Assembly: GCA_964576905.1 (NCBI GenBank)
Contig: CAZNWG010000004.1
Location: 1 to 43,715 of the forward strand
Source: an uncultured Candidatus Saccharibacteria bacterium
GTDB taxonomy: Bacteria; Patescibacteriota; Minisyncoccia; Phycocordibacterales; UBA918
Direction: 5' to 3'
Length of the DNA: 43,715 bases
In this document: positions 4,303 to 33,461 of the stretch, piece by piece
Layout: every line of letters starts with the position of its first letter
Numbering within the stretch: the first letter of the stretch is position 1
Translations under genes and position numbers: made by a program
The notes under the pieces: model-generated
Told to the model about the DNA's origin: nothing
What the model saw: the letters and a program-made list of their open reading frames with translations, nothing else
Database searches by the model: none

Positions 4303-5538
4303 ATGAAAAAATTTGGATTGTTTTTTGCTTCGGCACTTTTTGCATTTTCGGCGTTCATACACCCCGTATTTGCAGAGGAATCAACCGTAACCATTTACTT
4401 TTTTGGACGCAACGACTGCGCACACTGCACGGAAGAGAAAGCGTTTTTGAAAGAGTACCAGAGTACGGTCGAGGGCGTGACCTACACCTACTACAACGTC
4501 ACTGAAGATGCGAGTGCCAAGGAACTCTTTAATACCGTCATAGAAAAACACGGCCTCTCACACATTACGCCACTCACCGTCGTGGGGGATTCGGTCCTTC
4601 AGGGTTTTGATACCAAAGAGACAACGGGTGCTCAGATTATCGATGCTGTGGCGCGCGCGCGAACGTCAGACATTCGCACGCTCGACGACCACATCGCGCG
4701 CGCGCCAAAACAATCAGAAAGTTTTGTGGGTAGTGGCTGTGACTCAGAGGGGACAGAGTGTACCTCAACGGTCAATCCAAACAAGTTTCAATTCAACCTC
4801 CCCATACTTGGGATTGTTGACTTGAGAACATTTTCACTTTTTTCAATTTCGGCAATTCTTGGCACCATTGATGGTTTCAACCCGTGTGCAATGTGGGTAC
4901 TCATCACGTTCCTCGTCCTCCTCACGCAGGTCGGAGATAGAAAGAAGATGATATTTGTCGCGGGACTCTTCATCCTTGCGGAAGCCATCATGTACAACCT
5001 CATCCTCAATGTGTGGTTTACCACGTGGGACTTTGTAGGGCTCGATGCGGTCGTGACACCACTCGTTGGAGTGCTCGCACTCGGTGGAGGGGCATTTTTC
5101 CTCTACCGTTGGCACAAAAACCGTTTCAAGCCACTCATCTGTGACATTTCTGACCTCGAGACGCAGGGAAAGACGATTGCCAAAATTCAAAAAATTATCG
5201 AACAGCCCACAACCATCATCACCGTGCTCGCGGTTATTGCGATAGCGTTCTCCGTCAACATCATCGAATTTGCGTGCTCGATAGGTATTCCACAGGCGTA
5301 CACCAAAATCCTCGAGCTCAACGACCTCTCCTTCATTTCACGCCAGTTCTACATTCTCGTGTACACCCTCGGCTACATGGTCGATGACCTCATTGTCTTC
5401 GGGCTCGCTATATGGGGCTTCTCACGCCTTGAGTCACATGGCCACAAGTACTCCCAACTCTCACTCCTCATCGGTGGTTTCCTCATGCTCCTTTTAGGCG
5501 CGATACTTATCATTGACCCTGCGATTTTTGTGCTCTAG
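4303..5538 (+). CDS. Secreted thioredoxin/glutaredoxin-fold domain (CAHC) fused to a polytopic DsbD/CcdA-like membrane domain
   Basis: There is a signal peptide, then NDCAHCTEEKAFL. Multiple TM segments follow, with GFNPCAMWVL and EFACSIGIPQ cysteine motifs. Confidence 0.65.
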   Translation: MKKFGLFFASALFAFSAFIHPVFAEESTVTIYFFGRNDCAHCTEEKAFLKEYQSTVEGVTYTYYNVTEDASAKELFNTVIEKHGLSHITPLTVVGDSVLQGFDTKETTGAQIIDAVARARTSDIRTLDDHIARAPKQSESFVGSGCDSEGTECTSTVNPNKFQFNLPILGIVDLRTFSLFSISAILGTIDGFNPCAMWVLITFLVLLTQVGDRKKMIFVAGLFILAEAIMYNLILNVWFTTWDFVGLDAVVTPLVGVLALGGGAFFLYRWHKNRFKPLICDISDLETQGKTIAKIQKIIEQPTTIITVLAVIAIAFSVNIIEFACSIGIPQAYTKILELNDLSFISRQFYILVYTLGYMVDDLIVFGLAIWGFSRLESHGHKYSQLSLLIGGFLMLLLGAILIIDPAIFVL

Positions 5539-5611
5539 GGTGTCAAAAACCACACGTGCCCACTGCTCCAAGGTGGTATACTACTCTCATATTCGTTATT
5601 ACAGCCCTACC

Positions 5612-5983
5612 ATGTTTGGATTATTTCGTTCACCAGATACTGATTTACCTCAATCAAATTTTACTCATTCGAAAGATGATATTATTGCAGCGTTCGCGGA
5701 AGATGAGGCGATGCAGATGAAGCAGAAACAATTCGCAGCCGAGCTCGGAGTGTCTCTTGAAGAGGCAATAGAAGTACGTAAAAAGATTTCAAAAGAATAC
5801 AATGATGCACATATGGTGCGAGGTTTATCTGAGGCAGAGGCAATTGCGGACGTCATTGAAAAAAATCAGAGCTATACCAATGAGCAGATATCAATCATTC
5901 TTAGATCTATATGGGGAGTCGATATGCCCGGAGTTGTTGAGGATCCCCGTGGGCATGAGTCAGTGCACGGTACCCTACACTAA
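5612..5983 (+). CDS. Hypothetical protein
   Basis: This is an ORF from an internal ATG. The longer TTG-started version overlaps the previous gene. I recognise no family. Confidence 0.4.
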   Translation: MFGLFRSPDTDLPQSNFTHSKDDIIAAFAEDEAMQMKQKQFAAELGVSLEEAIEVRKKISKEYNDAHMVRGLSEAEAIADVIEKNQSYTNEQISIILRSIWGVDMPGVVEDPRGHESVHGTLH

Positions 5984-6038
5984 TCACATCTGTTCATGCG
6001 TGACAGTGCACTTTTCATAAACCGTATCGTATATAACC

Positions 6039-7046
6039 ATGCTTTTTAAAAAGAAGAAATTTTCAAGGGAGTCATTCGCAGGGGTGGGTATTATACTCAT
6101 CTTTGCATCGGTTGTGTCCGCATATGCTTATTTTCTTTCGGATGTACTCAACGACCAGTATTCTGTGAGTAACACAGAAATCGGTGGTGGAGCACAACAT
6201 GCGGAAGAAACAAAGAAAGCAGAAGAGGGCACAACAAACATTTGGGAAAATCTTTCAGTACATGGGCTCAGTGGCGAATACTACGAACTCAGTATTCAGG
6301 GCGTTGCAGATGAATTTGCATCTGAAAATTGTATCGGTGGCAGTGATGATGCAACCATTTTTATTCGTGGGAACGGTGATAGTGCAGACCGTAATCAAAT
6401 CCTTGTGGTACAAGATGAGACAAAAGGGAAGCGTACTTCTGTTTTGGCATACGGTGTGCGCGATGCGTGCACCGCACCGCTCGACGGCGACCCCGCAGAG
6501 GTGACCATACCGTACAACGAAAAGGGGTACATCGTCACCACGCGTGCGCTCGGACGACCGACGCAGAGCTTTGAGTATACCATTCAGGGAGACCTCATGT
6601 TTGCGAAAGATGAGTTTGACAATGATTTTCTCGTGCTCGGTGTGCAGAGTGACACGGGTTTTTTTACCGAAACTCAGATGCGCTCTCAGAAAAAAATGAA
6701 GGGAGCCCCGACAGACATCTCGGGACTTTTTGAGTGGAGTGGTTCGGTGTGTTACTTCAGCCCGGAATACCACTGCTCTGATGATTCTGATTCACACACG
6801 TGCGCTCCGGCACAGGTGTGCTGTTTGGATACCAATGAAGACGGTATTTCTGATTCGTGTACTGATGCAACCCCAGCGAGCGATGGTACGGCGACCTGTG
6901 TGACAGGGACACTCACCGATGTCGCATGTCGTGTGTACACAGACGAGTGGGTATTCAGTATAGATGATTTTGTTGCATCACTCTGGAATGTAGATGATGC
7001 AGGTCATTTTAAAGATGCACAGATACGGTTGTATCCAGTGCAGTGA
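6039..7046 (+). CDS. Hypothetical secreted or membrane-anchored protein with a Cys-rich C-terminus
   Basis: It has an N-terminal basic segment plus a TM (MLFKKKKFSRESFAGVGIILIFASVVSAYAYF). The coding-like composition has no competing ORF. Confidence 0.55.
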   Translation: MLFKKKKFSRESFAGVGIILIFASVVSAYAYFLSDVLNDQYSVSNTEIGGGAQHAEETKKAEEGTTNIWENLSVHGLSGEYYELSIQGVADEFASENCIGGSDDATIFIRGNGDSADRNQILVVQDETKGKRTSVLAYGVRDACTAPLDGDPAEVTIPYNEKGYIVTTRALGRPTQSFEYTIQGDLMFAKDEFDNDFLVLGVQSDTGFFTETQMRSQKKMKGAPTDISGLFEWSGSVCYFSPEYHCSDDSDSHTCAPAQVCCLDTNEDGISDSCTDATPASDGTATCVTGTLTDVACRVYTDEWVFSIDDFVASLWNVDDAGHFKDAQIRLYPVQ

Positions 7047-9194: not shown

Positions 9195-10283
9195 ATGAAT
9201 ACAATTGAAATTGGAATCTTCCTGTTACTCATCGCCATTGTGGCGATACTCGTGTACGTCTTTTTCCTCAAGAGGGAAGAGAAGGACACGCAGTCTTCTG
9301 ATGGGCTCATGATGCTTCAGCAACAGTTGCACGACCTCACGCGCACCATGGACGAGCGCATCGGTGAGACGAACCGGGTGATGCAGGAGGGGTCCCGCGC
9401 GCAGTTTCGAGAGAGTAGGGAGCTCATTCAGGAAATCAACAAAGAGGTGAACGAGCAGTTGCGCAACGTCGTGCGGGGTGTCACCGAGGTGTCGGAGTCC
9501 TCAAAGCAGGTGTTCACCATCGCGGACCAACTCCAAAACCTTGAAAAAATTCTCACGCACCAGAAGCAGAGGGGGAACCTCGGTGAGGCGTCACTCCAGC
9601 TCGCACTCGAAAACATGCTCCCCGCAACCGCGTACAAACTCCAGTACGGTTTCCCCGGGGGTGATGCGGTCGATGCGGTCATTATCACCAAAGACGGGAT
9701 GATACCGGTCGATGCGAAGTTCTCGCTCGACAACTACCGCCGTCTCGTGGATGAGACAAACCCCGAAAAGAAAGAAGAGCTTGAGAAGGAGTTCAAGAAC
9801 GATCTCAAAAAGCGCATCGACGAGACTGCGAAGTACATCAGGCCAAAGGACGGCACGCTCCCGTTTGCCTTCATGTACATTCCCGCAGAGGCAATCTACT
9901 ACGACCTCCTTGTGAATGAAGTGGGTGCGGTGAAGGTCAATACGCGCTCACTCATCGACTACGCGTACAAAGACAAGAACGTCATCATCGTGTCACCAAC
10001 CACCTTCGCCGCTTACCTTCAATCGGTACTCTACGGCTTCCGCGCGTTCAAGATAGAGGAGTCCGCAAAGCAGATAGGGAAGCATGTGGAGGGTCTCGCG
10101 CGTCACCTCAAGGCGTACGACGACTACTTCAAGAAGGTGGGTATCTCACTGGGGACCACGGTCAACCACTACAACGCCGCGCAGAAAGAGCTCGGAAAGG
10201 TAGACAAAGACGTAGCAAAAATCACCGACGGAGGTATTGACTTCGAGACAATCGCACTCGAAAAGCCGACTCAGGGGGAATAG
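9195..10283 (+). CDS. rmuC: DNA recombination protein RmuC
   Basis: There is an N-terminal TM, a coiled coil, then DAVIITKDGMIPVDAKFSLDNY and LPFAFMYIPAEAIYYDL. Confidence 0.85.
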   Translation: MNTIEIGIFLLLIAIVAILVYVFFLKREEKDTQSSDGLMMLQQQLHDLTRTMDERIGETNRVMQEGSRAQFRESRELIQEINKEVNEQLRNVVRGVTEVSESSKQVFTIADQLQNLEKILTHQKQRGNLGEASLQLALENMLPATAYKLQYGFPGGDAVDAVIITKDGMIPVDAKFSLDNYRRLVDETNPEKKEELEKEFKNDLKKRIDETAKYIRPKDGTLPFAFMYIPAEAIYYDLLVNEVGAVKVNTRSLIDYAYKDKNVIIVSPTTFAAYLQSVLYGFRAFKIEESAKQIGKHVEGLARHLKAYDDYFKKVGISLGTTVNHYNAAQKELGKVDKDVAKITDGGIDFETIALEKPTQGE

Positions 10284-10300
10284 GGGTTGTATATAGAAAA

Positions 10301-10325
10301 GAGGCGCGGACTGCGTCCGCGCCTC
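10301..10325. terminator. Hairpin terminator, with the better T-run on the minus strand
   Basis: The stem is gaggcgcgga-ctgcg-tccgcgcctc, with aaaa upstream on the plus strand. Confidence 0.6.
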
Positions 10326-10353
10326 TTGTGGTGTCTCCTTGTCAGAACACCGT

Positions 10354-10740
10354 TCAAATCGTATCTTCACCACCAGGGTCCCTCGGTGCATCTCTCTTTG
10401 TTGGAGGAATGCTTTCGACGTTGTTTATCTGATTCGTGTTTGGTCCACTCATTATGAATGTGTGGCCATCATTGCATTTGAACACAATTGTGACCCCGGA
10501 TACATTTTCGTGTTTGTATTTCCCGTTGACAGCTCTGATTTCAATGAAGTCTGCTTTTTTGAAGATGATCTTATCGAAATCACCACTACCGGTACAGATG
10601 ATTTTACCGGTCTCGATAAGTTCCTTCACCGTTGTGGCCTTTTTCACGGGAGGATTTTGCTTCGGCGGCTTGGCTTCAGCGACTCCACTCGTGATGAAAA
10701 GTGAAAAGAGAATTGCGGGTATTGCAGCGTAAGACCTCAT
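10354..10740 (-). CDS. Small secreted two-Cys protein (P1)
   Basis: It has the signal peptide MRSYAAIPAILFSLFITSGVAEA. AGGAGG lies upstream of the ATG at 10740. Confidence 0.6.
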   Translation of the reverse strand: MRSYAAIPAILFSLFITSGVAEAKPPKQNPPVKKATTVKELIETGKIICTGSGDFDKIIFKKADFIEIRAVNGKYKHENVSGVTIVFKCNDGHTFIMSGPNTNQINNVESIPPTKRDAPRDPGGEDTI

Positions 10741-10865
10741 TTTGCCTCCTTGGCACAGAAAAAGAAATTGTTGAAGAACTTCGTTATTATTATACAATAT
10801 AATCAGAAGAGTGCAAATTCAAGAGGCCAGATATCGCTGGCAACATATTTTGATAAAAAATTAAA

Positions 10866-10889
10866 GCGCGCAGTCCGAGGGATGCGCGC
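10866..10889 (-). terminator. Intrinsic terminator
   Basis: The stem is gcgcgca/tgcgcgc, with a T-run on the minus strand. Confidence 0.55.
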
Positions 10890-10925
10890 CTGTCTTGTGT
10901 TTCTCTCCTTGATTCTGGACAGTGT

Positions 10926-11213
10926 TCATATCGAGATCCTGCGCAGGTTGTAAAACTTGTTGTACTGGGCGGGCTCTCTCACCGGTACCACACGTATCTC
11001 CACTGTGTGGTCTGTGCAGAAGTAGTGAATGTTCACCACCTTGCTGTGCACTTGATAGTTTGCTTTGAAATTTTCAATGCCACCGTGTGCCTCACAGGGT
11101 GATTTCATAGGTGTCGTCACCATGTGCTCCGACTTCGTTCCCTGAAATACTGGATACGCATGAACGTACGGAATCGATGCCAGAATGACTGCGAATGCAT
11201 AAATCGTTTTCAT
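10926..11213 (-). CDS. Small secreted two-Cys protein (P2)
   Basis: It has the signal peptide MKTIYAFAVILASIPYVHA and is 95 aa. Confidence 0.55.
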   Translation of the reverse strand: MKTIYAFAVILASIPYVHAYPVFQGTKSEHMVTTPMKSPCEAHGGIENFKANYQVHSKVVNIHYFCTDHTVEIRVVPVREPAQYNKFYNLRRISI

Positions 11214-11246
11214 GAGCTTTCTCCAGTTGCTGATTGGAAAAGAATG

Positions 11247-11273
11247 AAAACGCGCGGGGTTTTAATCCGCGCG
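11247..11273 (-). terminator. Intrinsic terminator
   Basis: The stem is cgcgcgg/ccgcgcg, with a T-run on the minus strand. Confidence 0.55.
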
Positions 11274-11294
11274 CTTGAGCGAGGATCAGCCAGC

Positions 11295-11636
11295 TCACTT
11301 CTGTATCTGGTGGAAATACACCCACGTTTTATCGGCGCAGGTGATTTTGTCCATGGTATCCTGGTACCAGTATTTCCTTTCGCCTACGTCGATGCTGAGA
11401 AGGCCACCATGACCGTTGTTGCAGAACTCTTCTGCTTTGCGGATTGAGGAGATGTAGACAGGAACCCCACCCTGCTTTCTGAGTTCTTGTAGCTCCTTCT
11501 CGCTTGAGGTCCCATACGAAAGTCCGAGCAGGAATCCAGCCGACAAAACCCCTAGTCCCACAACGATTAGGAATATGATGACTAGAGCATTGGAACTCGT
11601 GTTGGCAGGTTTGTTCGACTGAGTAGTTTCCATCAT
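11295..11636 (-). CDS. Small membrane-anchored two-Cys protein (P3)
   Basis: It has the N-terminal TM ALVIIFLIVVGLGVLSAGFLLGL and an AGGAGG SD. Confidence 0.55.
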   Translation of the reverse strand: MMETTQSNKPANTSSNALVIIFLIVVGLGVLSAGFLLGLSYGTSSEKELQELRKQGGVPVYISSIRKAEEFCNNGHGGLLSIDVGERKYWYQDTMDKITCADKTWVYFHQIQK

Positions 11637-11814
11637 TGCCTCCTGGCAAAAGAAAATAAATTGTTGAAGAGCAATACGTCAGATATTATACGATACAATT
11701 GTAAAAAAGCAAGTATCTGAGTTCCTGAGGCTCAAAACCTATAAATTTGAGCTTTCTCTCAGCATATCCCCAAATGTTGCATTTTTTATGCTTTTCTTGT
11801 ACAATCGTGCCACT

Positions 11815-12162
11815 ATGAATACAGAGAAGACAACAACAGAAAAGCCAACAGAATTCGCCATTATTGAGACGGGAGGAAAGCAGTATATGGTCTCGGTGGG
11901 TGATGTGCTCGAAGTTGAGCTTCTCGGTGACCACAAAGAGGGTGATGCTATAGAATTTGATAAAGTACTCATGGTGGACAATGGTCTTGATACGACTATT
12001 GGGGAGCCATACATCAAGGGAGCTGTGGTAAAGGCAACTTTTCAACAGGAGAAGAAGGGAATTAAGCTCCACATCGTCCGCTACAAGGCAAAGAGCAACC
12101 GCGACCGACGCATCGGACACCGCCAGAAATACGCGCAGGTGAAGATTGACGCACTCAAATAA
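11815..12162 (+). CDS. rplU: 50S ribosomal protein L21
   Basis: FAIIETGGKQYMVSVGDVLEVE...RYKAKSNRDRRIGHRQKYAQVKI matches L21. Confidence 0.92.
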   Translation: MNTEKTTTEKPTEFAIIETGGKQYMVSVGDVLEVELLGDHKEGDAIEFDKVLMVDNGLDTTIGEPYIKGAVVKATFQQEKKGIKLHIVRYKAKSNRDRRIGHRQKYAQVKIDALK

Positions 12163-24806: not shown

Positions 24807-26267
24807 ATGGATGTGTGGTTTCACAAAGTGTTTCGGTACATGCTCTTTTTGGCGTATGGCATTTTTGCTTTTGCGGTATATGGTGTGGCTCGTGTACCCG
24901 TCTACGCGGAGGAGTCATATGCGCAAGACACACAGACTGAGGTACCAACAGAGATCAACACAGTGGAGGACACGGCACCGCTGAGTGAAAATGTGAATTT
25001 TGATGCACCAATTAGCAAGACAGGAGAGGATGTGTCGCCACCAGATGTTGCGGAAATAATTCCACCTGAGCCGGTCTTGGATACCGATATTTCGCTCCCC
25101 GTTACTCCGCCGATTGAAGAACCTGTGGTATCAGATACACCTACCGAAGGTGATACACCTGAAGAGGTTCCGAGCTCCACAGGAGCCGAAACTTCTTTTG
25201 AAGAGAATGCATCGACCACTGAAAAAATAACTGAGGTACAGGTACCCGTTCCGTTTCCCGCAGATGAATCGCATATTCTTACGGCAGATACCTATGGTCC
25301 TTTTGCACTCATAGACCAACCTGTTTTTGTACTGCATGCCGAGCAGCCGTTTCTTAAAATACGTGAGGACATAGATGGTGATACCAATGAAGGTGGTGTG
25401 ATTGAAGACATGTTTACGACAGTCGACAATGTTGTCGACGCAGTAGTGGAAATGGTAGGAGAAGTAATTGAGGTGGTGGTCGATGCGACAACTGCCGCCG
25501 CCACCTTTGTGGTGGATGCAGTTATTCAAAGCGAAGAACCCACCGAAGTACTCGAGGTTCCTGAAGTGCCTGCGGAGGATGGGGAAGTGCCATCCATACG
25601 TGCTGGTGAAAGCACAGTGGTCACTACAACATCCACAGAAGAAATCGCCGTTGCCACAGACACTGAAACAGAGTCGCTAGATGCTCCTCCAATAGAAGTG
25701 GCTCTACCCGATGCACTATACACGGTGCGCGTACTCGTGGACGGCCAACTCTGCACACACACGAGTAATTTACAGAGTGACACGACGCTCGAAGTGACGG
25801 TTGCGCCTCCATGCATGACACCGGGTACGCATCAGGCACACATTGAGGTGGAGGTGTCCGACACCATATATGTGTGGGAGGGGGAGTTTGTGTGGGGTGG
25901 TGAGGTGATAGCTACACAGACACTCGATACAACTCGTACACTTGCACTCATCGTCTCACCTCTGAGTGGGGCAGGGCTCTGGCTTCGTGAGTTCGTCAAT
26001 GGTGACACGCTCTACACATTCCTCGAAGTGCGAACAGGTGCGCTAGCGCTTCCGCCTATAGGTATGGAAGGTGAAACAATCCTGTGGGTCGCCGATGCAC
26101 AAAATGCACTCATTGGTTTCGACTTGCTCTCACGCACCATCTTTTCACAATCACTCGAGACTCGTCGCGTCGATACCGAAATACCGCTCCATGAAGCGTG
26201 GTATACGGTGCACACCGATGCGCAGACGGTTGACCTTGTACCCGTGCCACCAGAAGAAATACTATGA
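24807..26267 (+). CDS. Secreted or anchored acidic P/E/T-rich protein; first gene of the surface locus
   Basis: It has an N-terminal hydrophobic segment (MLFLAYGIFAFAVYGVARVPVYA). Its stop overlaps the next start (ATGA at 26264-26267). Confidence 0.6.
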   Translation: MDVWFHKVFRYMLFLAYGIFAFAVYGVARVPVYAEESYAQDTQTEVPTEINTVEDTAPLSENVNFDAPISKTGEDVSPPDVAEIIPPEPVLDTDISLPVTPPIEEPVVSDTPTEGDTPEEVPSSTGAETSFEENASTTEKITEVQVPVPFPADESHILTADTYGPFALIDQPVFVLHAEQPFLKIREDIDGDTNEGGVIEDMFTTVDNVVDAVVEMVGEVIEVVVDATTAAATFVVDAVIQSEEPTEVLEVPEVPAEDGEVPSIRAGESTVVTTTSTEEIAVATDTETESLDAPPIEVALPDALYTVRVLVDGQLCTHTSNLQSDTTLEVTVAPPCMTPGTHQAHIEVEVSDTIYVWEGEFVWGGEVIATQTLDTTRTLALIVSPLSGAGLWLREFVNGDTLYTFLEVRTGALALPPIGMEGETILWVADAQNALIGFDLLSRTIFSQSLETRRVDTEIPLHEAWYTVHTDAQTVDLVPVPPEEIL

Positions 26268-29200
26268 TGCAGTACTCCCGCCCACATGTATACACAACAC
26301 TGCGCACAGTGTTCTTTGTGTGTGTTTCAGTGGTCAGTGTTCTCGCGTTTTTTGAGGTGGCGCACCTCCTTGATGGCGCACACTATGCTAAAAAAGTGGT
26401 AAGTGAAATGGCGCCCGAGAAGGCGCTCGCAGTGTATCAATTCTCCCCCACCTCCGGCACTGTCATAACCGGCACTGCCACCACGACCATAGGCCCCACG
26501 CACACCGACTCTTGGAAAGCCACCTTGGGTAATGAATCCGGTACCAACGGTGCCGGCAACTATTGGACCATCGCTCGTACCGCATCAGGCCTCGACGTGC
26601 AACTCCAATTTGATGGAGTGGAACTCCAGGGTGCCAACAAACTTCTCATCACCATGGAGGACACCAATCAAAACACCGCCTCTGCATACGTCCACCAGAT
26701 ATGTGACTGGATATCAAATACAAGTGTCGACAATGAAGCCGACGCACAGTGCACCGGTGGTGGGTGGCGCACGCTCCAACCCCGCAAGACCGCTTATACC
26801 ACGAACAACACCGACACCAATCGTGTGTATGAAATATACGACGGATACTTTAGTACCCGTGTCACCACCCCCGGCACTTCCATTGCAACACCACTCACCA
26901 ACTTTGTGGATACCACAAGCAAGCGTGTCCTCATCCGCGCCTCTTCCACCGTCTCGGGGACACAGGAGATACGCATCGACTACGCACGCGTGGAAGTGGC
27001 CATTGACTCTTTCTATGAACCCTCAGGATTCGCGACCACCTCTGCTGGCGCCACCACCAACTACCTCTCCGACCTCGTCGGTGCAGTCTCCACCAATCTC
27101 ACCGGCTCTGATGGAAACAAACTTACCATTCCTATGGTCGGCGCGTCGCAGGCCGCAGATTTCAACTTCACCTTCGGAAACGTGAAGACCCTCACCGGTA
27201 TGAACACCATCCACGTGGTACCTGAAATCTGTGTCTCGAACGTCGCGCTCCAATTCAACATCTACCTCTATAACTACAACACCGACACGTGGACGCGAGG
27301 CGGTGCGACAACGACGAGTACCGCCTGTGCCACCGACACCGAATACGGCTTCTCCTTCAACGACACCTTCGTCCCCGGGTTTGTCATGAGTGACCACATT
27401 GAAAACGGGGAAGTGAAGGTACGCTTTGTCACCAGTTCTACCTCCGTTGCATACAACATGCAGTTTGACCGCATCTACCTCATGGTGGGTGCGGTGAATG
27501 ACGATACATCGCAGTGCGAGATCAGCTGGGGAAGTGGCACCGCGACCAACTGTGACCGTACCCGCTCCATGGGTGAGGGTATTGCTGCTACTCCCACGAC
27601 GACCACGTGGCAATCCACTGTGGTACTCGAGTATCCTGCAGACCATCACTCGCAAGACAATGACGACGATGCGACAAACGGTGAGTACGCGCAGTCGATG
27701 AATCTCTCGTTTCCCATGCGGGTAGCCTCGAATACTGCTATTACGGGGACACACTACGCGGTGAAGTTCCGCTCGGGTACCACGACGATTACCAATGATG
27801 TCCAACTCAACAAATATGGTGGCGCTTCGGGTTTGGGTGGTGAAGCTGCAGGGTCGGGATGGATAAACACTCCCGGTACCGACACGAACGCCTCCCTCAC
27901 CTACAGCTACTTCGACACCTGGCGTCTCGCGGAACTCGAAGCATCCCCTGAAGACACCGTCGACACGGTGAACGACCGCATGAACCTGCGTCTCCGTACC
28001 TCGGCATCTACCAACATCGCCGGCGGTACCACGAACGACTGGGACTTTGCGATGGTGGGGGTGCGGTGGGTGGAAGAACCGAAGCGCGTTACCGTGACCA
28101 CACAATTCTCCCCCACCTCCGGCACTGTCATAACCGGCACTGCCACCACGACCATAGGCCCCACGCACACCGACTCTTGGAAAGCCACCTTGGGTAATGA
28201 ATCCGGTACCAACGGTGCCGGCAACTATTGGACCATCGCTCGTACCGCATCAGGCCTCGACGTGCAACTCCAATTTGATGGAGTGGAACTCCAGGGTGCC
28301 AACAAACTTCTCATCACCATGGAGGACACCAATCAAAACACCGCCTCTGCATACGTCCACCAGATATGTGACTGGATATCAAATACAAGTGTCGACAATG
28401 AAGCCGACGCACAGTGCACCGGTGGTGGGTGGCGCACGCTCCAACCCCGCAAGACCGCTTATACCACGAACAACACCGACACCAATCGTGTGTATGAAAT
28501 ATACGACGGATACTTTAGTACCCGTGTCACCACCCCCGGCACTTCCATTGCAACACCACTCACCAACTTTGTGGATACCACAAGCAAGCGTGTCCTCATC
28601 CGCGCCTCTTCCACCGTCTCGGGGACACAGGAGATACGCATCGACTACGCACGCGTGGAAGTGGCCATTGACTCTTTCTATGAACCCTCAGGATTCGCGA
28701 CCACCTCTGCTGGCGCCACCACCAACTACCTCTCCGACCTCGTCGGTGCAGTCTCCACCAATCTCACCGGCTCTGATGGAAACAAACTTACCATTCCTAT
28801 GGTCGGCGCGTCGCAGGCCGCAGATTTCAACTTCACCTTCGGAAACGTGAAGACCCTCACCGGTATGAACACCATCCACGTGGTACCTGAAATCTGTGTC
28901 TCGAACGTCGCGCTCCAATTCAACATCTACCTCTATAACTACAACACCGACACGTGGACGCGAGGCGGTGCGACAACGACGAGTACCGCCTGTGCCACCG
29001 ACACCGAATACGGCTTCTCCTTCAACGACACCTTCGTCCCCGGGTTTGTCATGAGTGACCACATTGAAAACGGGGAAGTGAAGGTACGCTTTGTCACCAG
29101 TTCTACCTCCGTTGCATACAACATGCAGTTTGACCGCATCTACCTCATGGTGGGTGCGGTGAATGACGATACATCGCAGTGCGAGATCAGCTGGGGAAGT

Positions 29201-30238
29201 GGCACCGCGACCAACTGTGACCGTACCCGCTCCATGGGTGAGGGTATTGCTGCTACTCCCACGACGACCACGTGGCAATCCACTGTGGTACTCGAGTATC
29301 CTGCAGACCATCACTCGCAAGACAATGACGACGATGCGACAAACGGTGAGTACGCGCAGTCGATGAATCTCTCGTTTCCCATGCGGGTAGCCTCGAATAC
29401 TGCTATTACGGGGACACACTACGCGGTGAAGTTCCGCTCGGGTACCACGACGATTACCAATGATGTCCAACTCAACAAATATGGTGGCGCTTCGGGTTTG
29501 GGTGGTGAAGCTGCAGGGTCGGGATGGATAAACACTCCCGGTACCGACACGAACGCCTCCCTCACCTACAGCTACTTCGACACCTGGCGTCTCGCGGAAC
29601 TCGAAGCATCCCCTGAAGACACCGTCGACACGGTGAACGACCGCATGAACCTGCGTCTCCGTACCTCGGCATCTACCAACATCGCCGGCGGTACCACGAA
29701 CGACTGGGACTTTGCGATGGTGGGGGTGCGGTGGGTGGAGAAAAATCCCTCACAGTACATTGCCTTTAGGTTATCTGATAATTCGGTGGGTCTCGGTACA
29801 CTTTCTCCCGGTGAGACACGCTACGCAACAGGGAACCTCTTCGGTACTACAACCGACAGTGAAGCCCACACTATTTCGGTGAGTACCAATGCTGTTGCGG
29901 GCTACGTGGTGACTCTTGATGGTGCAACGCTTACCTGTGCGGGATGTGGCGGAGCGACTTTGACTCCCATAGGGAACACCGCAACCACCGCACTTCCGGG
30001 GACAGAGCAGTTTGGCGTCCGCTACACGCTCCTCTCGGGTACCGGTACGACTACGGCACCCTACGACACATCACTCTACGCATTTGATACTGCGAGTTTC
30101 CCTGACGCGGTTATGAGTGGTCTCGGAGACAGTTACACCTCGGTTTTTGGCGCCCACTACCTAGGAAACGTGACCAACGAAACTGAACCGGGCACCTATA
30201 TGGGGACGGTGACGTACACCGTGACAAGTACGTACTAG
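26264..30238 (+). CDS. Giant surface protein: N-terminal TM/signal, two identical 555-aa modules, and a C-terminal WxL-like (Tyr-variant) domain
   Basis: This is a single uninterrupted 1324-aa ORF. It has an internal perfect repeat, and its C-terminal ~160 aa are homologous to the C-terminus of the next gene. Confidence 0.8.
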   Translation: MMQYSRPHVYTTLRTVFFVCVSVVSVLAFFEVAHLLDGAHYAKKVVSEMAPEKALAVYQFSPTSGTVITGTATTTIGPTHTDSWKATLGNESGTNGAGNYWTIARTASGLDVQLQFDGVELQGANKLLITMEDTNQNTASAYVHQICDWISNTSVDNEADAQCTGGGWRTLQPRKTAYTTNNTDTNRVYEIYDGYFSTRVTTPGTSIATPLTNFVDTTSKRVLIRASSTVSGTQEIRIDYARVEVAIDSFYEPSGFATTSAGATTNYLSDLVGAVSTNLTGSDGNKLTIPMVGASQAADFNFTFGNVKTLTGMNTIHVVPEICVSNVALQFNIYLYNYNTDTWTRGGATTTSTACATDTEYGFSFNDTFVPGFVMSDHIENGEVKVRFVTSSTSVAYNMQFDRIYLMVGAVNDDTSQCEISWGSGTATNCDRTRSMGEGIAATPTTTTWQSTVVLEYPADHHSQDNDDDATNGEYAQSMNLSFPMRVASNTAITGTHYAVKFRSGTTTITNDVQLNKYGGASGLGGEAAGSGWINTPGTDTNASLTYSYFDTWRLAELEASPEDTVDTVNDRMNLRLRTSASTNIAGGTTNDWDFAMVGVRWVEEPKRVTVTTQFSPTSGTVITGTATTTIGPTHTDSWKATLGNESGTNGAGNYWTIARTASGLDVQLQFDGVELQGANKLLITMEDTNQNTASAYVHQICDWISNTSVDNEADAQCTGGGWRTLQPRKTAYTTNNTDTNRVYEIYDGYFSTRVTTPGTSIATPLTNFVDTTSKRVLIRASSTVSGTQEIRIDYARVEVAIDSFYEPSGFATTSAGATTNYLSDLVGAVSTNLTGSDGNKLTIPMVGASQAADFNFTFGNVKTLTGMNTIHVVPEICVSNVALQFNIYLYNYNTDTWTRGGATTTSTACATDTEYGFSFNDTFVPGFVMSDHIENGEVKVRFVTSSTSVAYNMQFDRIYLMVGAVNDDTSQCEISWGSGTATNCDRTRSMGEGIAATPTTTTWQSTVVLEYPADHHSQDNDDDATNGEYAQSMNLSFPMRVASNTAITGTHYAVKFRSGTTTITNDVQLNKYGGASGLGGEAAGSGWINTPGTDTNASLTYSYFDTWRLAELEASPEDTVDTVNDRMNLRLRTSASTNIAGGTTNDWDFAMVGVRWVEKNPSQYIAFRLSDNSVGLGTLSPGETRYATGNLFGTTTDSEAHTISVSTNAVAGYVVTLDGATLTCAGCGGATLTPIGNTATTALPGTEQFGVRYTLLSGTGTTTAPYDTSLYAFDTASFPDAVMSGLGDSYTSVFGAHYLGNVTNETEPGTYMGTVTYTVTSTY
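26438..28102 (+). repeat. Tandem repeat unit 1 (1665 bp, 555 codons)
   Basis: 26438-28074 is identical to 28103-29739. All frames give identical peptides in the ORF track, and I spot-checked the nucleotide lines. Confidence 0.95.
28103..29739 (+). repeat. Tandem repeat unit 2 (lacks the last 28 bp of the unit)
   Basis: The offset is exactly 1665 bp. Identity ends at ...gtgggtgga, followed by agaacc in copy 1 and gaaaaa in copy 2. Confidence 0.95.
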
Positions 30239-30260
30239 ATTGTTTTTAAGTTTTACACAG

Positions 30261-30294
30261 GCGCGGTCAATTTTTATGCAAAAATTGACCGCGC
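30261..30294 (+). other. Perfect 15-bp-stem hairpin (4-nt loop) without a U-tract, between the giant and small subunit genes
   Basis: The sequence is gcgcggtcaattttt-atgc-aaaaattgaccgcgc. Confidence 0.7.
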
Positions 30295-30386
30295 GCAAGG
30301 TACAATACATCTATATTAGTGAGGGAATTTATTTCTAATAATTTATTTTTTGTATGCGTAGTATCGGAATAGAAGTGGGAGGAAAA

Positions 30387-31418
30387 ATGACCGTAGCGGT
30401 GCTCATGACTGCAGTAGTGCTACTCAGCTGTATCGGTGTGCGCGTTTCGTATGCGGCATCAATCACCTCAGCGTCAGACACCATGTCTTCACAAAAGGTG
30501 AACGCCTCGTCTTCACACGTACTTCGCTTTGTGACCCCCACCGGAGCGTCGGACAACACTGACACCATCATCATCACATTCCCCTCAGATTTTAACTTCA
30601 CCGGAAAAAATATCTCTTCACTTTCCTTCACGCACGGCCCTTCGACCGGTCTTGAAACTACCGAAACTCTCGCGGGGAGCGCCACGGCAGGTAGTTGGGG
30701 TGCCGCTTTTTCAGGTACCCAAAATCGCATTCTCACACTCACCGCACCAACAGATGGCGTGGGTGCAGGAGCGGTTGCTGCAAGTGACAAAATCATCATC
30801 ACCTACGATGCAACAAGCTCGGTAAACCCAAGTTCCCCAACTACCTATGGTATTGGCATTACGGGTGCGTTTGGCGACTCGGGTACTATAACGGTGAGTA
30901 TTGTGAGCGATGACCAAGTGGCTATCGACGCGACCGTGGCACAATCGATTACGTTTTCTATTTCAGACAATAGTGTGAGTTTTGGAACGCTCACCGCCGG
31001 TGCAGCGCGTTACGCTTCGGGTACCGCTTCCGGTGATACCTCAGAAGTGGAAGCGCACAATGTCATCGTGGGTACCAACGCGGCAAACGGCTACACCATG
31101 ACCGCATCAGGAACGACACTCACCTCCGGAGGCAACACTATCAATCCTATTGGTGCAGCAAACACGGCTTCGGCGATAGGGACTGAACAGTTTGGACTTC
31201 GCATGAACGCGTCTGGTGGTAGCGGTGCGGTTGCCGTACCATACGCTGCGGCAGGTTTTGCATTCGACTCCGCTGCATTCCCCGATGTGGTGGCAAGCTC
31301 TGGTACCGCATCAGCAAACACTACGTATTCAGCACGATACATTGCAAACATTACCTCAAATACAGAAGCGGGAAGCTACACCTCAACGATTACCTATTCG
31401 GCAACGGCCAACTATTAA
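30387..31418 (+). CDS. Small surface subunit with a C-terminal WxL-like (Tyr-variant) domain
   Basis: GGGAGG lies 5 nt upstream of the ATG at 30387. It has the signal peptide MTVAVLMTAVVLLSCIGVRVSYA, and its C-terminal half aligns to the giant protein's C-terminus. Confidence 0.75.
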   Translation: MTVAVLMTAVVLLSCIGVRVSYAASITSASDTMSSQKVNASSSHVLRFVTPTGASDNTDTIIITFPSDFNFTGKNISSLSFTHGPSTGLETTETLAGSATAGSWGAAFSGTQNRILTLTAPTDGVGAGAVAASDKIIITYDATSSVNPSSPTTYGIGITGAFGDSGTITVSIVSDDQVAIDATVAQSITFSISDNSVSFGTLTAGAARYASGTASGDTSEVEAHNVIVGTNAANGYTMTASGTTLTSGGNTINPIGAANTASAIGTEQFGLRMNASGGSGAVAVPYAAAGFAFDSAAFPDVVASSGTASANTTYSARYIANITSNTEAGSYTSTITYSATANY

Positions 31419-31473
31419 CGTTTTTGTACAGGGGTGACGAGTTTAACAGACTGGCGTACAATAAGGCCCATTC

Positions 31474-32430
31474 ATGAAAATACATCAGATATTCATACTT
31501 ATACTCTTCACGCTTTCTCTATGTGCGGTACCAAAGGCTTCCGTATTCGCGCTCACGCTTTCTCCGGTACGTATCGAAATTGCTGGTGATCCCGGCCAAA
31601 CGCTCCATGGTGAAATTGAAATCTACAACGAGCAGTCTGAGCAAAAGACGTTCTATACAACATTTGAAAATTTTGAACCGAGTGGTGAGGACGGGGCACC
31701 TAAGTTTGTGGGCGGTGGAAGCGAACTCGCTACATGGATACAGACAGAAGAAATGGTGATTCTCGCACCAAGTGAGAAGCGTACGGTTGCGTACACCATC
31801 ACCATACCTGAGGGTACTGAACCAGGAGGGTACTTCGGTGCAGTTTTTTTTGGAGGTCAAAACCCCGACACACTCGAGAACGGGGAAGTGTCGGTGGGAG
31901 GGAAGCTCGGTACTCTCGTGCTCCTTACCGTCCGCGGTGACATAAAGGAAGGTGCGGGCATTCTCGATTTTGGAGCAAATATCGGTCGTGTGGGTGTGTA
32001 TCTTCCGATATCATTCAGCTACCGCATGAGTAACGACGGTGCCGATCGTATTGTTCCGCGGGGAGATATTCGCATCACCAATACCTTTGGCATGACCGCC
32101 GTATCTATTCCGGCAAACGAACTTGAGGGGAGTATTTTGCCAGAGAGCGCACGTCGCTTCACGAGTGTATGGGCAGGCACAAATGGACCCGGAGCAGGAT
32201 TTTTTGATGCAGTACGCTATGAATGGGAGAATCTCCACATTGGCTGGTATACAGCGCATGCACGCGTCGCGTGGGGTACGCAGAATGGTGTTTCGACAGC
32301 TCGATACGATTTTCTTCTCATCCCGTGGCATTTACTCGTCGTTTGTATGTTCCTTGGTGTTGCACTTACGTATGGTCTAAATAGATACAACACATGGATC
32401 ATCAAACGTTCGAAAACAAACTCGAAATAG
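31474..32430 (+). CDS. Signal peptide + beta-rich ectodomain + single C-terminal TM anchor (DUF916/DUF3324-like or chaperone-like partner)
   Basis: It begins MKIHQIFILILFTLSLCAVPKASVFA and ends WHLLVVCMFLGVALTYGL followed by a basic tail. It also contains LSPVRIEIAGDPGQTLHGEIEIYN and TITIPEGTEPGGYFGAVFF. Confidence 0.7.
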   Translation: MKIHQIFILILFTLSLCAVPKASVFALTLSPVRIEIAGDPGQTLHGEIEIYNEQSEQKTFYTTFENFEPSGEDGAPKFVGGGSELATWIQTEEMVILAPSEKRTVAYTITIPEGTEPGGYFGAVFFGGQNPDTLENGEVSVGGKLGTLVLLTVRGDIKEGAGILDFGANIGRVGVYLPISFSYRMSNDGADRIVPRGDIRITNTFGMTAVSIPANELEGSILPESARRFTSVWAGTNGPGAGFFDAVRYEWENLHIGWYTAHARVAWGTQNGVSTARYDFLLIPWHLLVVCMFLGVALTYGLNRYNTWIIKRSKTNSK

Positions 32431-33461
32431 GAATTGTTTTCGCTATAGTAGTTGCAGGAATGTTCTTTTACTCTCCCGCAATGCTTTTTGCTGAAGACGT
32501 GGTGCTCGAAGGCCGTGTGCCGGGGTGTGGTGATGGGGTGGTGGAGAGTGGAGAATCATGCGATGGCAGTTCACTCAATGCCCAGTCGTGTACGACACTC
32601 GGCTTTAGTGGTGGGGCACTCGCCTGTGCGCCGACATGCATTTTTGATACGAGTGCCTGCACCATATCGAGCGGAGGGGGAGGTGGGGGCGGTGGTGCAA
32701 GCACAAAGTCTGCAAAGTCACTTGTTGCTTTCGAGGGGAAGGCAATGCCGTTTGGGCATATTACGCTTCTTATAGATGGAGCTATTGTTGCTTCGACCAC
32801 AGCGGATCAGCTCGGACAATTTGCCTTTTCAGCACGAAATCTTCCACGGGGTACGTATCAGTTTGATGTATATGGGACCGATTCGTCTGGGATTCAAACA
32901 GCTTCATATTCACTCCGTTCAACAATAGCGAGCAAATCAGTGCTCAAAATTGAGGGTATTTTTTTGGGACCAAGTATAACTTCCGATATGCTCGAAGTTG
33001 TGCCAAAAAAACCCATTGTATTTTCTGGTTTTGCAGTACCGAATTCGCGAATACTCATAACGCTGAGAGGTGAACAAGGACATACAACCTTCTTTTTTGC
33101 GAGTACAAGCGCAGAGGGGATGTACTCATACACAGTTCAGACAGATATACTGCAGAGAGGATACTATTCTGCGTCCGCACAGTCTTTTCTATTTAATGCA
33201 AGCAGTACACCGAGTCGAACGATATGGGTTCGTATTGGGGATGCCAACATATCTCGTACAGAGACTCAATCGACTTGCCCAGCTCGAGGTGATTTGAATA
33301 GCGATTGCAAAGTAAATCTCACTGATTTCTCGATTCTTATGTTTTGGTTCCGCCAAAGATTGAACAGTGATTTTATCCAACGGGAGAAATCATCCCTTTC
33401 TGGTGATGGTCAGGCTGACCTTGTCGACTTCAGTATACTATTCTTTAATTGGACTGGGTGA
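32394..33461 (+). CDS. Secreted protein: Cys-rich CGDG repeat, Gly8 linker, Ig-like middle region, C-terminal dockerin-like pair
   Basis: It contains CGDGVVESGESCDGSSLNAQSC...CAPTCIFDTSAC, then SSGGGGGGGGAS. The C-terminus has GDLNSDCKVNLTDFSILMFW and GDGQADLVDFSILFFNW. Confidence 0.7.
   Translation: MDHQTFENKLEIGIVFAIVVAGMFFYSPAMLFAEDVVLEGRVPGCGDGVVESGESCDGSSLNAQSCTTLGFSGGALACAPTCIFDTSACTISSGGGGGGGGASTKSAKSLVAFEGKAMPFGHITLLIDGAIVASTTADQLGQFAFSARNLPRGTYQFDVYGTDSSGIQTASYSLRSTIASKSVLKIEGIFLGPSITSDMLEVVPKKPIVFSGFAVPNSRILITLRGEQGHTTFFFASTSAEGMYSYTVQTDILQRGYYSASAQSFLFNASSTPSRTIWVRIGDANISRTETQSTCPARGDLNSDCKVNLTDFSILMFWFRQRLNSDFIQREKSSLSGDGQADLVDFSILFFNWTG

Follow-up and report, generated by a model that had tools for sequence, protein, structure and literature searches.

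A candidate Pam-type pilus operon with a dockerin-bearing putative cap in a Candidate Phyla Radiation bacterium

The contig CAZNWG010000004.1 of the uncultured bacterial assembly GCA_964576905.1, analyzed here over its full length of 43,715 nucleotides (“the window”), carries five consecutive plus-strand genes for exported proteins, designated P1 to P5. We interpret this locus, with a probability of roughly 0.7, as a compact Pam-type pilus operon, encoding a thin surface filament that would be assembled by donor-strand exchange without an usher, in an ultra-small bacterium of the Candidate Phyla Radiation (CPR) from the Paceibacteria lineage. P1 (24807-26267; 486 aa) is an acidic secreted protein, P2 (26264-30238; 1324 aa) is a giant protein with a C-terminal pilin domain, P3 (30387-31418, 343 aa, or 354 aa from an alternative ATG at 30354) is a candidate major (shaft) pilin, P4 (31474-32430; 318 aa) is a candidate membrane-anchored chaperone or tether, and P5 (32394-33461; 355 aa) is a secreted, dockerin-bearing protein. 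The initial annotation of these genes, made from the letters of the window, offered two readings: a variant of the WxL/Csc cell-surface complexes with Tyr in place of Trp, or a donor-strand-type fiber in a CPR-like genome. The second is now the better supported one, given a curated profile of the pilin domain (NF058581), the cryo-electron microscopy (cryo-EM) of Pam pilins and the CPR host, whereas the first does not hold for the domain that P2 and P3 have in common.

Pam pili are known from the CPR bacterium “Candidatus Mycosynbacter amalyticus” (Saccharimonadia), for the filaments of which cryo-EM structures were reported in 2026 (Troman et al., bioRxiv 10.64898/2026.03.03.709456). The NCBIfam model NF058581 (CPR_Pam_pilin_C, “Pam pilus system pilin subunit”; cutoff, 55 bits), which derives from the same preprint, matches the C-terminal ~135 residues of both P2 and P3. 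In P3, the match covers positions 31011-31415 of the plus strand (residues 220-354; E = 1.6e-22, 80.2 bits) and in P2, positions 29822-30235 (residues 1187-1324; E = 1.5e-13, 51.1 bits), where a hidden Markov model (HMM) of the domain built locally gives an E value of 1.8e-57. All 63 C-terminal domains collected from related loci match NF058581 as well (best E = 1.1e-47). That P2 and P3 share their terminal domain had been recognized from the start, and the C-terminal ~167 residues of the two proteins are indeed 44% identical (E = 3e-45). By its profile matches, this domain is the Pam-pilin C-terminal domain and not a WxL domain. Searches of P2 and P3 against Pfam return nothing significant and no WxL match at E ≤ 1, and neither the P3 domain nor the C-terminal domain of P2 contains a W-x-L motif. 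Two of the 63 family domains graze Pfam WxL (PF13731; best E = 0.075), and two touch Fimbrial (PF00419; best E = 0.044). A profile of the domain finds no WxL chain and nothing meaningful among PDB sequences, a set that holds no Pam pilin structures. The Tyr residues singled out in the initial annotation as possible stand-ins for the WxL tryptophans are conserved in the family: among the 63 members, G-Y in NGYTMT and T-Y in ITYSAT show a conservation of at least 90%, two further Tyr residues are invariant, and the conserved aromatic residues of the domain are Tyr and Phe. The equivalog model for the Pam tip pilin PamT (NF058579; cutoff, 240 bits) reaches a best score of 36.5 bits, over the shared domain only.

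A scan of a genome collection with a P4 profile yielded 80 related loci, in which open reading frames (ORFs) were called and searched with the proteins of the window; individual loci are referred to below by L-numbers. Judging from the record titles, they span many CPR lineages, including Paceibacterota, Parcubacteria, Kaiser-, Nomura-, Taylor-, Staskawicz-, Harrison-, Magasanik-, Falkow-, and Gracilibacteria. A P5-like gene directly follows the P4-like gene in 73 of 75 informative loci, and a pilin-domain gene, nearly always encoding a P3-like protein of ~355 aa, directly precedes it in 67 of 69. A second pilin-domain gene is found further upstream on the same strand in 54 of 63 informative loci, with products that range from 249 to 2182 aa. 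Thus, the conserved unit consists of four genes, for a variable pilin-domain protein, a shaft-like pilin, P4, and P5, and the window contains exactly two pilin-domain genes, one P4 gene (signal peptide, two immunoglobulin [Ig]-like domains, and a transmembrane [TM] helix), and one P5 gene. The recurrence of this core in nearly all of the 80 loci places the arrangement far beyond chance. Joint conservation of the five genes, a point raised in the initial annotation, is seen for P2 to P5 and not for P1, a relative of which is encoded in 2 of the 80 loci. The arrangement has some variants. In L013, L015, L017, L018, and L021, the second pilin-domain gene (~330 aa) is found on the minus strand ~2.4 kb upstream of the P3-like gene, and L051, L055, L070, L080, and L082 have two or three tandem P3-like pilin genes, which recalls PamA, PamB, and PamE.

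P3 is composed of a signal peptide, an N-terminal β-sandwich, a conserved linker strand, and the Pam-pilin domain; the mature protein contains no Cys. Its homologs fall into more than 120 clusters of ~355-aa proteins with 63 to 100% identity. In PamA and PamB, which are two-domain pilins, each subunit donates the strand that links its two domains to its neighbor, the C-terminal domain of which is open, and the supplement of the Pam paper describes this donated linker, N-terminal to the C-terminal domain, as the most conserved part (10.64898/2026.03.03.709456). In 62 P3-like proteins, a near-invariant strand, Q-V-x-[VI]-[ST]-A-T-V, is located ~166 residues from the C-terminus, directly before a QSxTFSISDN... 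segment that is present in both P2-like and P3-like proteins. It reads QVAIDATV in the window (30915-30938, plus strand; residues 188-195 of the 354-aa form) and is lacking in the variable proteins of the upstream slot. A position-specific scoring matrix (PSSM), built from the P3-like strands only, was used with a threshold of at least 10 bits, the 99th percentile of shuffled P5 sequences being 11.3 bits. QVAIDATV scores 21.0 bits, as opposed to 1.1 bits for the best segment of P2. The threshold is reached by 38 of the 65 P5-like proteins, with the hits lying at residues ~25-60, as compared with 7 of 369 other ORFs of 250 to 500 aa and 6 of 64 proteins counted as P2-like; of these six, five are ~360-aa equivalents of the shaft pilin that carry the strand where P3 has it. 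This pattern, with the strand present in P3, absent from the variable protein, and mimicked in P5, is the one expected if the strand is a donor, the variable protein an acceptor-only tip, and P5 a cap. On the strength of this conservation, QVAIDATV is a candidate for the donor strand of P3.

The AlphaFold2 (AF2) model of P3 shows the N-terminal domain as a β-sandwich, with a predicted local distance difference test score (pLDDT) of 70 to 90. A fold search with this model was useful for that domain only and gave marginal, generic β-sandwich matches, and the P3 sequence found nothing meaningful among solved structures, again in a PDB set without Pam pilins. The best, still marginal, structural match of the N-terminal sandwich (30354-30914) is a cohesin, 2xdh (E = 1.3e-3; TMt, 0.47), and 4uyp_C is matched as well. 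On these models, a dockerin-cohesin-like contact between the P5 dockerin and the N-terminal domains of the pilins is conceivable.

P5 comprises a signal peptide, an N-terminal strand, a Cys-rich repeat, a linker of eight glycines, Ig-like domains, and a C-terminal type I dockerin (33288-33440, plus strand; residues 299-349), with no TM helix. The initial description of this protein as Cys-rich and dockerin-like proved apt, with 8 Cys residues and a dockerin-like C-terminus. Dockerin_1 is matched by 30 of 32 P5-family members (best E = 3.6e-11) and Big_6, an Ig-like domain, by 27 of 32, so that the dockerin of P5 is, by family-wide profile matches, a genuine one. The Cys-rich repeat is found in about two thirds of P5-like proteins. 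In the alignment of these proteins, a strand T-V-[ED]-I-[ST]-A-[TQ]-V comes right after the signal peptide and is very similar to the strand that precedes the pilin domain in P3. Its counterpart in the window is DVVLEGRV (32496-32519, plus strand), the strand having drifted in the window's own clade. Since P5 has the donor-like strand and lacks the pilin domain, which would provide a groove, it could act as a cap, and its sequence suggests a strand-donating terminator or anchor.

P4 is the only one of the five proteins with a second hydrophobic segment. Its AF2 model (pLDDT, 90.7) consists of a signal helix, two β-domains (residues 27-127 and 145-282), and a C-terminal TM helix (residues 285-317; nucleotides 32326-32424, plus strand) followed by a basic tail. 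In a Foldseek search of the PDB, its top match is the WxL-interacting protein (WxLIP) of Enterococcus faecium bound to a long WxL protein (9i25_C; E = 2e-11), with the free WxLIP (9i1y) also found, followed by Vibrio RbmA (E = 1e-10) and by the chaperones CfaA, CsuC, Caf1M, and DraB of chaperone-usher systems (TMt up to 0.50). These matches define, at the level of a model, a fold class and an architecture rather than a specific family. At the sequence level, Pfam WxLIP_PGBD (PF06030, DUF916) gives sub-threshold matches in 13 of 42 P4-family members (best E = 4e-4), none of which reaches the gathering score (17.8 versus 27.3 bits). DUF3324 (PF11797) is matched neither by P4 at E ≤ 1 nor by the 42 family members at E ≤ 0.1, and PapD families are absent from the matches of these 42 proteins at E ≤ 0.1. 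An NCBIfam model named “putative S-layer protein” is weakly matched by 11 of the 42 (best E = 0.0073). Neither P4 nor the P4-family profile finds anything meaningful among the sequences of solved structures.

For P4, more than 150 close homologs of equal length are found, all unnamed, and a profile of 42 of them matches 1,355 representative clusters at E ≤ 1e-30 and 10,019 at E ≤ 1e-3, the latter count perhaps including tandem-Ig proteins that are more distantly related. Basic residues are kept in the family at positions 33 (R/K; 40 of 42) and 144 (K/R; 42 of 42), the latter at the end of a conserved EVSIGGK strand that comes after the sole low-confidence loop of the model (residues 128-137). 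The two residues and the strand may parallel the Arg8/Lys112 pair and the G1 strand of PapD. From its fold and anchor, we infer that P4 may serve as a chaperone and tether in the membrane. Two related loci are unusual at this position. L020 has two tandem P4-like genes (10004-10972 and 10979-11938), the second of which has diverged (E = 1e-34 to P4) and weakly matches P5, recalling the PamC/PamD pair. In L077, a 90%-identical relative of the window, the P4 gene (5053-5983) is split into ORFs of 208 and 121 aa by a frameshift, as a pseudogene, or through a sequencing error.

P2, a protein of 142 kDa, combines a signal or TM segment with two identical modules of ~550 aa and the Pam-pilin C-terminal domain. 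The modules reflect a perfect tandem duplication that was overlooked in the initial annotation: on the plus strand, positions 26438-28074 (copy 1) and 28103-29739 (copy 2) are identical over 1,637 nt, with a period of 1665 nt. Relatives with the same module likewise carry two copies, the identity of which within a genome is 100% in L007, 81% in L010, 73% in L030, 68% in L051, 77% in both L060 and L067, and 43% in L055. In L010, L030, and L051, the two copies are more similar to each other than are copies from different genomes, whereas those of L060 and L067 form orthologous pairs (95 to 96% identity between the genomes versus 77% within each). The modules of L007 are 61% identical to those of the window, yet L007 has a perfect duplication of its own (1622 nt; 5032-6653, repeated at +1647). 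L077 encodes one module only, perhaps through collapse of the repeat during assembly. In at least 4 samples, short-read contigs end ~27 nt inside the start of the repeat, and another contig begins 29 nt before its end, a behavior expected of a true repeat. An assembly artifact as the source of the duplication is ruled out by these independent breaks at both edges of the repeat and by the separate perfect duplication in the distant L007. These comparisons suggest that an adhesin-like module in P2 and its relatives has repeatedly undergone duplication or gene conversion. The exact 1324-aa sequence of P2 is not present in a collection of 15 billion proteins, which does contain P1, P3, P4, and P5 of the same contig; the public record probably either lacks a call for P2 or has the gene in another form, for which the repeat may be responsible. 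Because it has no P3-type strand and could only accept one, P2 is a candidate for the adhesin at the distal tip.

The following assembly scheme would account for these features. All products would be exported by Sec. P4, kept in the membrane by its C-terminal helix, would act as a PapD- or WxLIP-like chaperone that temporarily fills the open groove in the incomplete Ig-like C-terminal domain of a newly exported P2 or P3. P2, with its two large modules and a pilin domain that can only accept a strand, would take the distal tip as a host- or surface-binding adhesin. Next, QVAIDATV, located between the sandwich and the C-terminal domain of P3, would enter the groove of the preceding subunit, and repetition of this step would let the filament grow from its base. 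Growth would end when the strand at the mature N-terminus of P5 caps the last P3, and the dockerin and Ig-like domains of P5 might then attach the base to the envelope or bind fibers to one another. P1 would be a clade-specific accessory, translationally coupled to P2.

Several observations weigh against this interpretation. The data establish the order and joint conservation of the genes, the place of P2 and P3 in the Pam-pilin domain family, the predicted fold and membrane anchor of P4, the dockerin of P5, and, across the family, the likeness of the P3 and P5 strands; polymerization as such, capping by a chaperone, P2 at the tip, and P5 as terminator are proposals. The NF058581 score of P2 falls just below the cutoff of that model. 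In the AF2 model of P3, calculated with 32 homologs, the C-terminal half, for which an incomplete Ig fold is postulated, has a pLDDT of ~30; the low value is probably due to a shallow alignment (63 to 90% identity) and is no evidence for an incomplete fold. The P5 strand of the window scores -3.1 bits on the PSSM of P3 strands, having retained only the alternating V-L-G-V. For P4, the Foldseek TM-scores are low (0.34 to 0.50) and many generic tandem-Ig proteins match it too, while no relevant NCBIfam model matches the P4 family, so that P4 is at most a putative ortholog of PamC or PamD. Finally, the locus has a single chaperone-like gene and no genes of the PamT, PamE, or PamR type.

One alternative is an arrangement of the WxL/Csc kind, in which P2 and P3 would be displayed singly on the envelope, each stabilized by strand complementation from the membrane-anchored P4 in the way suggested for the WxL proteins and WxLIP of Firmicutes, and no polymer would form. 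Such a complex would explain why the best solved-structure matches of P4 are WxLIP structures, with and without a long WxL protein as partner, and why faint traces of WxLIP_PGBD run through the P4 family. It would also fit the gene content, a small and a large protein with a common domain next to a signal-2Ig-TM protein being the commonest type of WxL cluster (PMC10599100). Even the two family domains that graze Pfam WxL, faint as they are, concern a family that had been named in advance. Nevertheless, we consider this explanation improbable. The shared domain belongs, in 63 of 63 cases, to a family whose members have been seen as filaments by cryo-EM, P2 and P3 have no WxL match, their common domain has no W-x-L motif, and its profile finds no WxL chain among PDB sequences. 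The WxLIP_PGBD matches all remain below the Pfam gathering score. Moreover, a linker strand that is present in P3, missing from P2-like proteins, and mimicked at the N-terminus of P5 is expected for polymerization with capping and not for the display of monomers. Thus, the WxL-like logic seen in the initial annotation stands for the layout and for P4, with its signal-2Ig-TM architecture, its match to 9i25_C, and the 13 of 42 relatives that touch WxLIP_PGBD, and falls for the shared domain, in view of its profile matches and missing motif.

An extracellular matrix or envelope lattice would account for other parts of the data. The P3-type proteins and P5 would then form a cohesin-dockerin scaffold or an S-layer-like coat, with P2 as a displayed enzyme or adhesin. 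This possibility draws on the true type I dockerin found in nearly all P5-family members, on the cohesin among the structural matches of the P3 N-terminal domain, on the resemblance of P4 to the biofilm scaffold protein RbmA, and on the weak matches of the P4 family to the S-layer model. The cohesin-like matches are marginal, however, and stand amid many generic β-sandwich ones, no Pfam cohesin match is found in any of the proteins, and the Pam-pilin domain and the conserved donor-like strand would be left unexplained, all of which makes a lattice highly improbable. That the five genes encode unrelated secreted hypothetical proteins which are adjacent by accident is barely credible. Pfam assigns none of the five at the gathering score and P1 is not co-conserved, but the order and strand of four genes are kept in 54 to 73 of 63 to 75 informative loci from many CPR lineages, P2 and P3 have a strongly similar domain in common, and start/stop overlaps tie P1 to P2 and P4 to P5. 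For the four-gene core, an accidental grouping is already refuted by the neighborhood analysis. The Pam-type filament remains our preferred reading of the locus.

As to the layout of the locus, the five plus-strand ORFs of the initial annotation are all present at the positions it gave, and its further details could be read directly from the window: the ATGA overlap of the P1 stop and the P2 start at 26264-26267, a GGGAGG Shine-Dalgarno sequence for P3 at 30377-30382, 4 nt upstream of the ATG at 30387, and the overlap of P4 and P5 by 37 nt. Each protein has exactly one N-terminal hydrophobic segment, as had been claimed, and the C-terminal TM segment and basic tail ascribed to P4 are borne out by its model. 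None of the 25 ORFs scanned for families encodes a sortase, an usher, or a type IV pilus component, in agreement with the initial account; there is no ORF of usher size (~800 aa), the only window ORFs of more than 500 aa being P2 and a PIF1-type helicase, and P1 to P5 contain no LPxTG motif. P1 was correctly described as acidic and rich in P, E, and T, with a pI of 4.05 and a composition dominated by V, T, E, A, P, and D. It has no match in Pfam or NCBIfam, and its rarity in the related loci rules it out as a part of the core and marks it as a lineage-specific accessory.

The 148-nt spacer between P2 and P3 contains, upstream of an AT-rich stretch and the P3 GGGAGG, a hairpin at 30261-30294 (plus strand), recognized by reading and folding the sequence, with a perfect 15-bp stem (GCGCGGTCAATTTTT / AAAAATTGACCGCGC), the loop ATGC, and no U-tract. 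It was not called by a simple terminator scan. The hairpin may be an attenuator or an RNA-processing or stability element that sets the ratio of P2 (tip) to P3 (shaft), and the strong Shine-Dalgarno sequence of P3, together with this spacer, is consistent with separate dosage of the shaft and tip subunits. Promoter and terminator scans of the locus gave nothing convincing, promoter-like sigma-70 sites being fewer than in shuffled sequences.

The five-gene block is flanked by a minus-strand gene for uracil-DNA glycosylase and a gene for an RNase T-like exonuclease, and the rest of the window is of a housekeeping nature (DnaB, CysS, GltX, RecR, PGI, MurG-like, and others). Two more plus-strand ORFs, 4303-5538 (411 aa) and 6039-7046 (335 aa), have no Pfam family and no Pam-pilin, P4-like, or P5-like domain. 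Titles of the related records (“Saccharibacteria,” “Gammaproteobacteria,” “Bacillota,” “Crocinitomicaceae”) were not trusted for taxonomy, and DnaB was used for placement instead. The closest named relatives of the window DnaB, at 86 to 87% identity, come from Paceibacterota, Minisyncoccia, and Kaiserbacteria, which identifies the host genome, as judged by this protein, as a CPR genome of the Paceibacteria lineage. L005, a near-identical relative of the window, is titled Saccharibacteria, while the DnaB result puts this lineage with Paceibacterota and Kaiserbacteria. The CPR-type operon is also found in L008, L025, L027, L052, L058, and other loci on contigs with such titles as “uncultured Gammaproteobacteria,” “Bacillota,” “Crocinitomicaceae,” or “Saccharibacteria”; these contigs are likely mislabeled or mis-binned.

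CPR bacteria are believed to live in attachment to host cells, and little is known about the way in which they make this contact. If the interpretation proposed here is correct, a stripped-down, four-gene Pam-type filament exists across Paceibacteria-type lineages (Kaiser-, Nomura-, Taylor-, Staskawicz-, Harrisonbacteria, and others), the hypervariable slot upstream of the shaft pilin, with its products of 249 to 2182 aa, would be a likely determinant of host specificity, and the dockerin protein P5 would be a new, testable candidate for a terminator or anchor.

In comparison with the known Pam system, the locus has the C-terminal pilin domain defined by the curated HMM, two-domain pilins with a sandwich, a conserved linker, and a C-terminal domain, and Sec signal peptides on all components, and it likewise has no usher or trans-envelope machine and is restricted to CPR. 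PamC and PamD are PapD/FimC-like chaperones with a C-terminal TM helix, PamT is a single-domain tip pilin, and PamR is an RbmA-like membrane tether whose N-terminal strand is predicted to cap the fiber (10.64898/2026.03.03.709456). A tandem-Ig, chaperone-like protein held by a C-terminal TM helix is thus common to both systems, as is a strand-donating non-pilin protein proposed to end the fiber, PamR in one and P5 in the other. However, two pilin-domain genes are found here in place of PamA, PamB, PamE, and PamT, one chaperone-like gene in place of PamC and PamD, and no RbmA-like TM tether corresponding to PamR. P5 differs in its dockerin, Ig-like domains, Cys-rich repeat, and lack of a TM helix, the tip candidate has tandem modules and a mass of 142 kDa versus 25.6 kDa for PamT, and mature P3 is Cys-free whereas PamA and PamB have 2 to 3 Cys pairs. 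ATP synthase genes are not seen near the locus. Its host is Paceibacteria/Kaiserbacteria-like, in contrast to Saccharimonadia and Microgenomatia, in which Pam pilins were found to be most prevalent, and the Pam paper mentions neither dockerin nor cohesin (10.64898/2026.03.03.709456). Accordingly, the locus is not “undescribed,” as the initial annotation had it, since the Pam system was published and modeled in 2026; undescribed for the type system are the hypervariable, sometimes giant tip slot, the single chaperone/tether, and the dockerin-bearing candidate cap.

The Gram-negative chaperone-usher pili (Pap/Fim, CFA/I with CfaA-CfaB, Csu, and Caf1) offer a more distant parallel. Assembly by donor-strand complementation and exchange, a tip adhesin made of a receptor-binding part and a pilin domain, and a terminator that donates a strand and is unable to accept one are all proposed here by analogy. 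The two-domain Ig-like chaperone is reflected in the matches of P4 to CfaA, CsuC, Caf1M, and DraB, and the two conserved basic residues of P4 may be a further parallel to PapD. Unlike those systems, the locus has no usher, belongs to an organism without an outer membrane, and encodes a membrane-anchored chaperone candidate, and its putative donor strand is internal, between two domains, rather than an N-terminal extension. With no membership in Pfam PapD_N, PapD_C, or Fimbrial, apart from the two marginal Fimbrial matches, the likeness is one of fold only.

The WxL/Csc clusters of Firmicutes are the other relevant comparison. A WxLIP consists of a signal peptide, DUF916, DUF3324, and a TM helix, one of its strands is predicted to enter the WxL domain, and the commonest cluster comprises one WxLIP and a small and a large WxL protein (PMC10599100). 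The differences are clear: the domain found here is not WxL by sequence and has no Trp-x-Leu motifs, P4 is below the Pfam thresholds for DUF916 and DUF3324, there is no LPxTG partner (CscD), the host is a CPR bacterium and not a member of the Firmicutes, and WxL proteins are described as peptidoglycan-bound, not as filament-forming. On the other side are the pair of small and large secreted proteins with a common C-terminal domain beside a signal-2Ig-TM protein, the WxLIP structures (9i25 and 9i1y) as the best matches of P4, the predicted placement of a WxLIP β-hairpin strand in the WxL domain, which is also strand complementation, and the lack of an outer membrane in both groups of organisms. 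A more speculative view, which we consider doubtful, is that a single ancient strand-complementation system, which dispenses with an usher and belongs to bacteria lacking an outer membrane, has given rise to both the WxL clusters (in Firmicutes) and the Pam-type pili (in CPR). P4 and WxLIP would then be homologous chaperone/tethers anchored in the membrane, the Pam-pilin and WxL domains would be homologous acceptors with Tyr for Trp, and the four-gene operon, with its tip, shaft, chaperone, and dockerin-bearing strand-donor cap, would be a minimal form not yet described. Should this common origin be real, some WxL proteins would also polymerize or be capped by strand donation, and if the pilus interpretation is correct, the structural tie between P4 and the Enterococcus WxLIP relates a pilus of CPR bacteria to an adhesion system of gut Firmicutes that is itself poorly understood.

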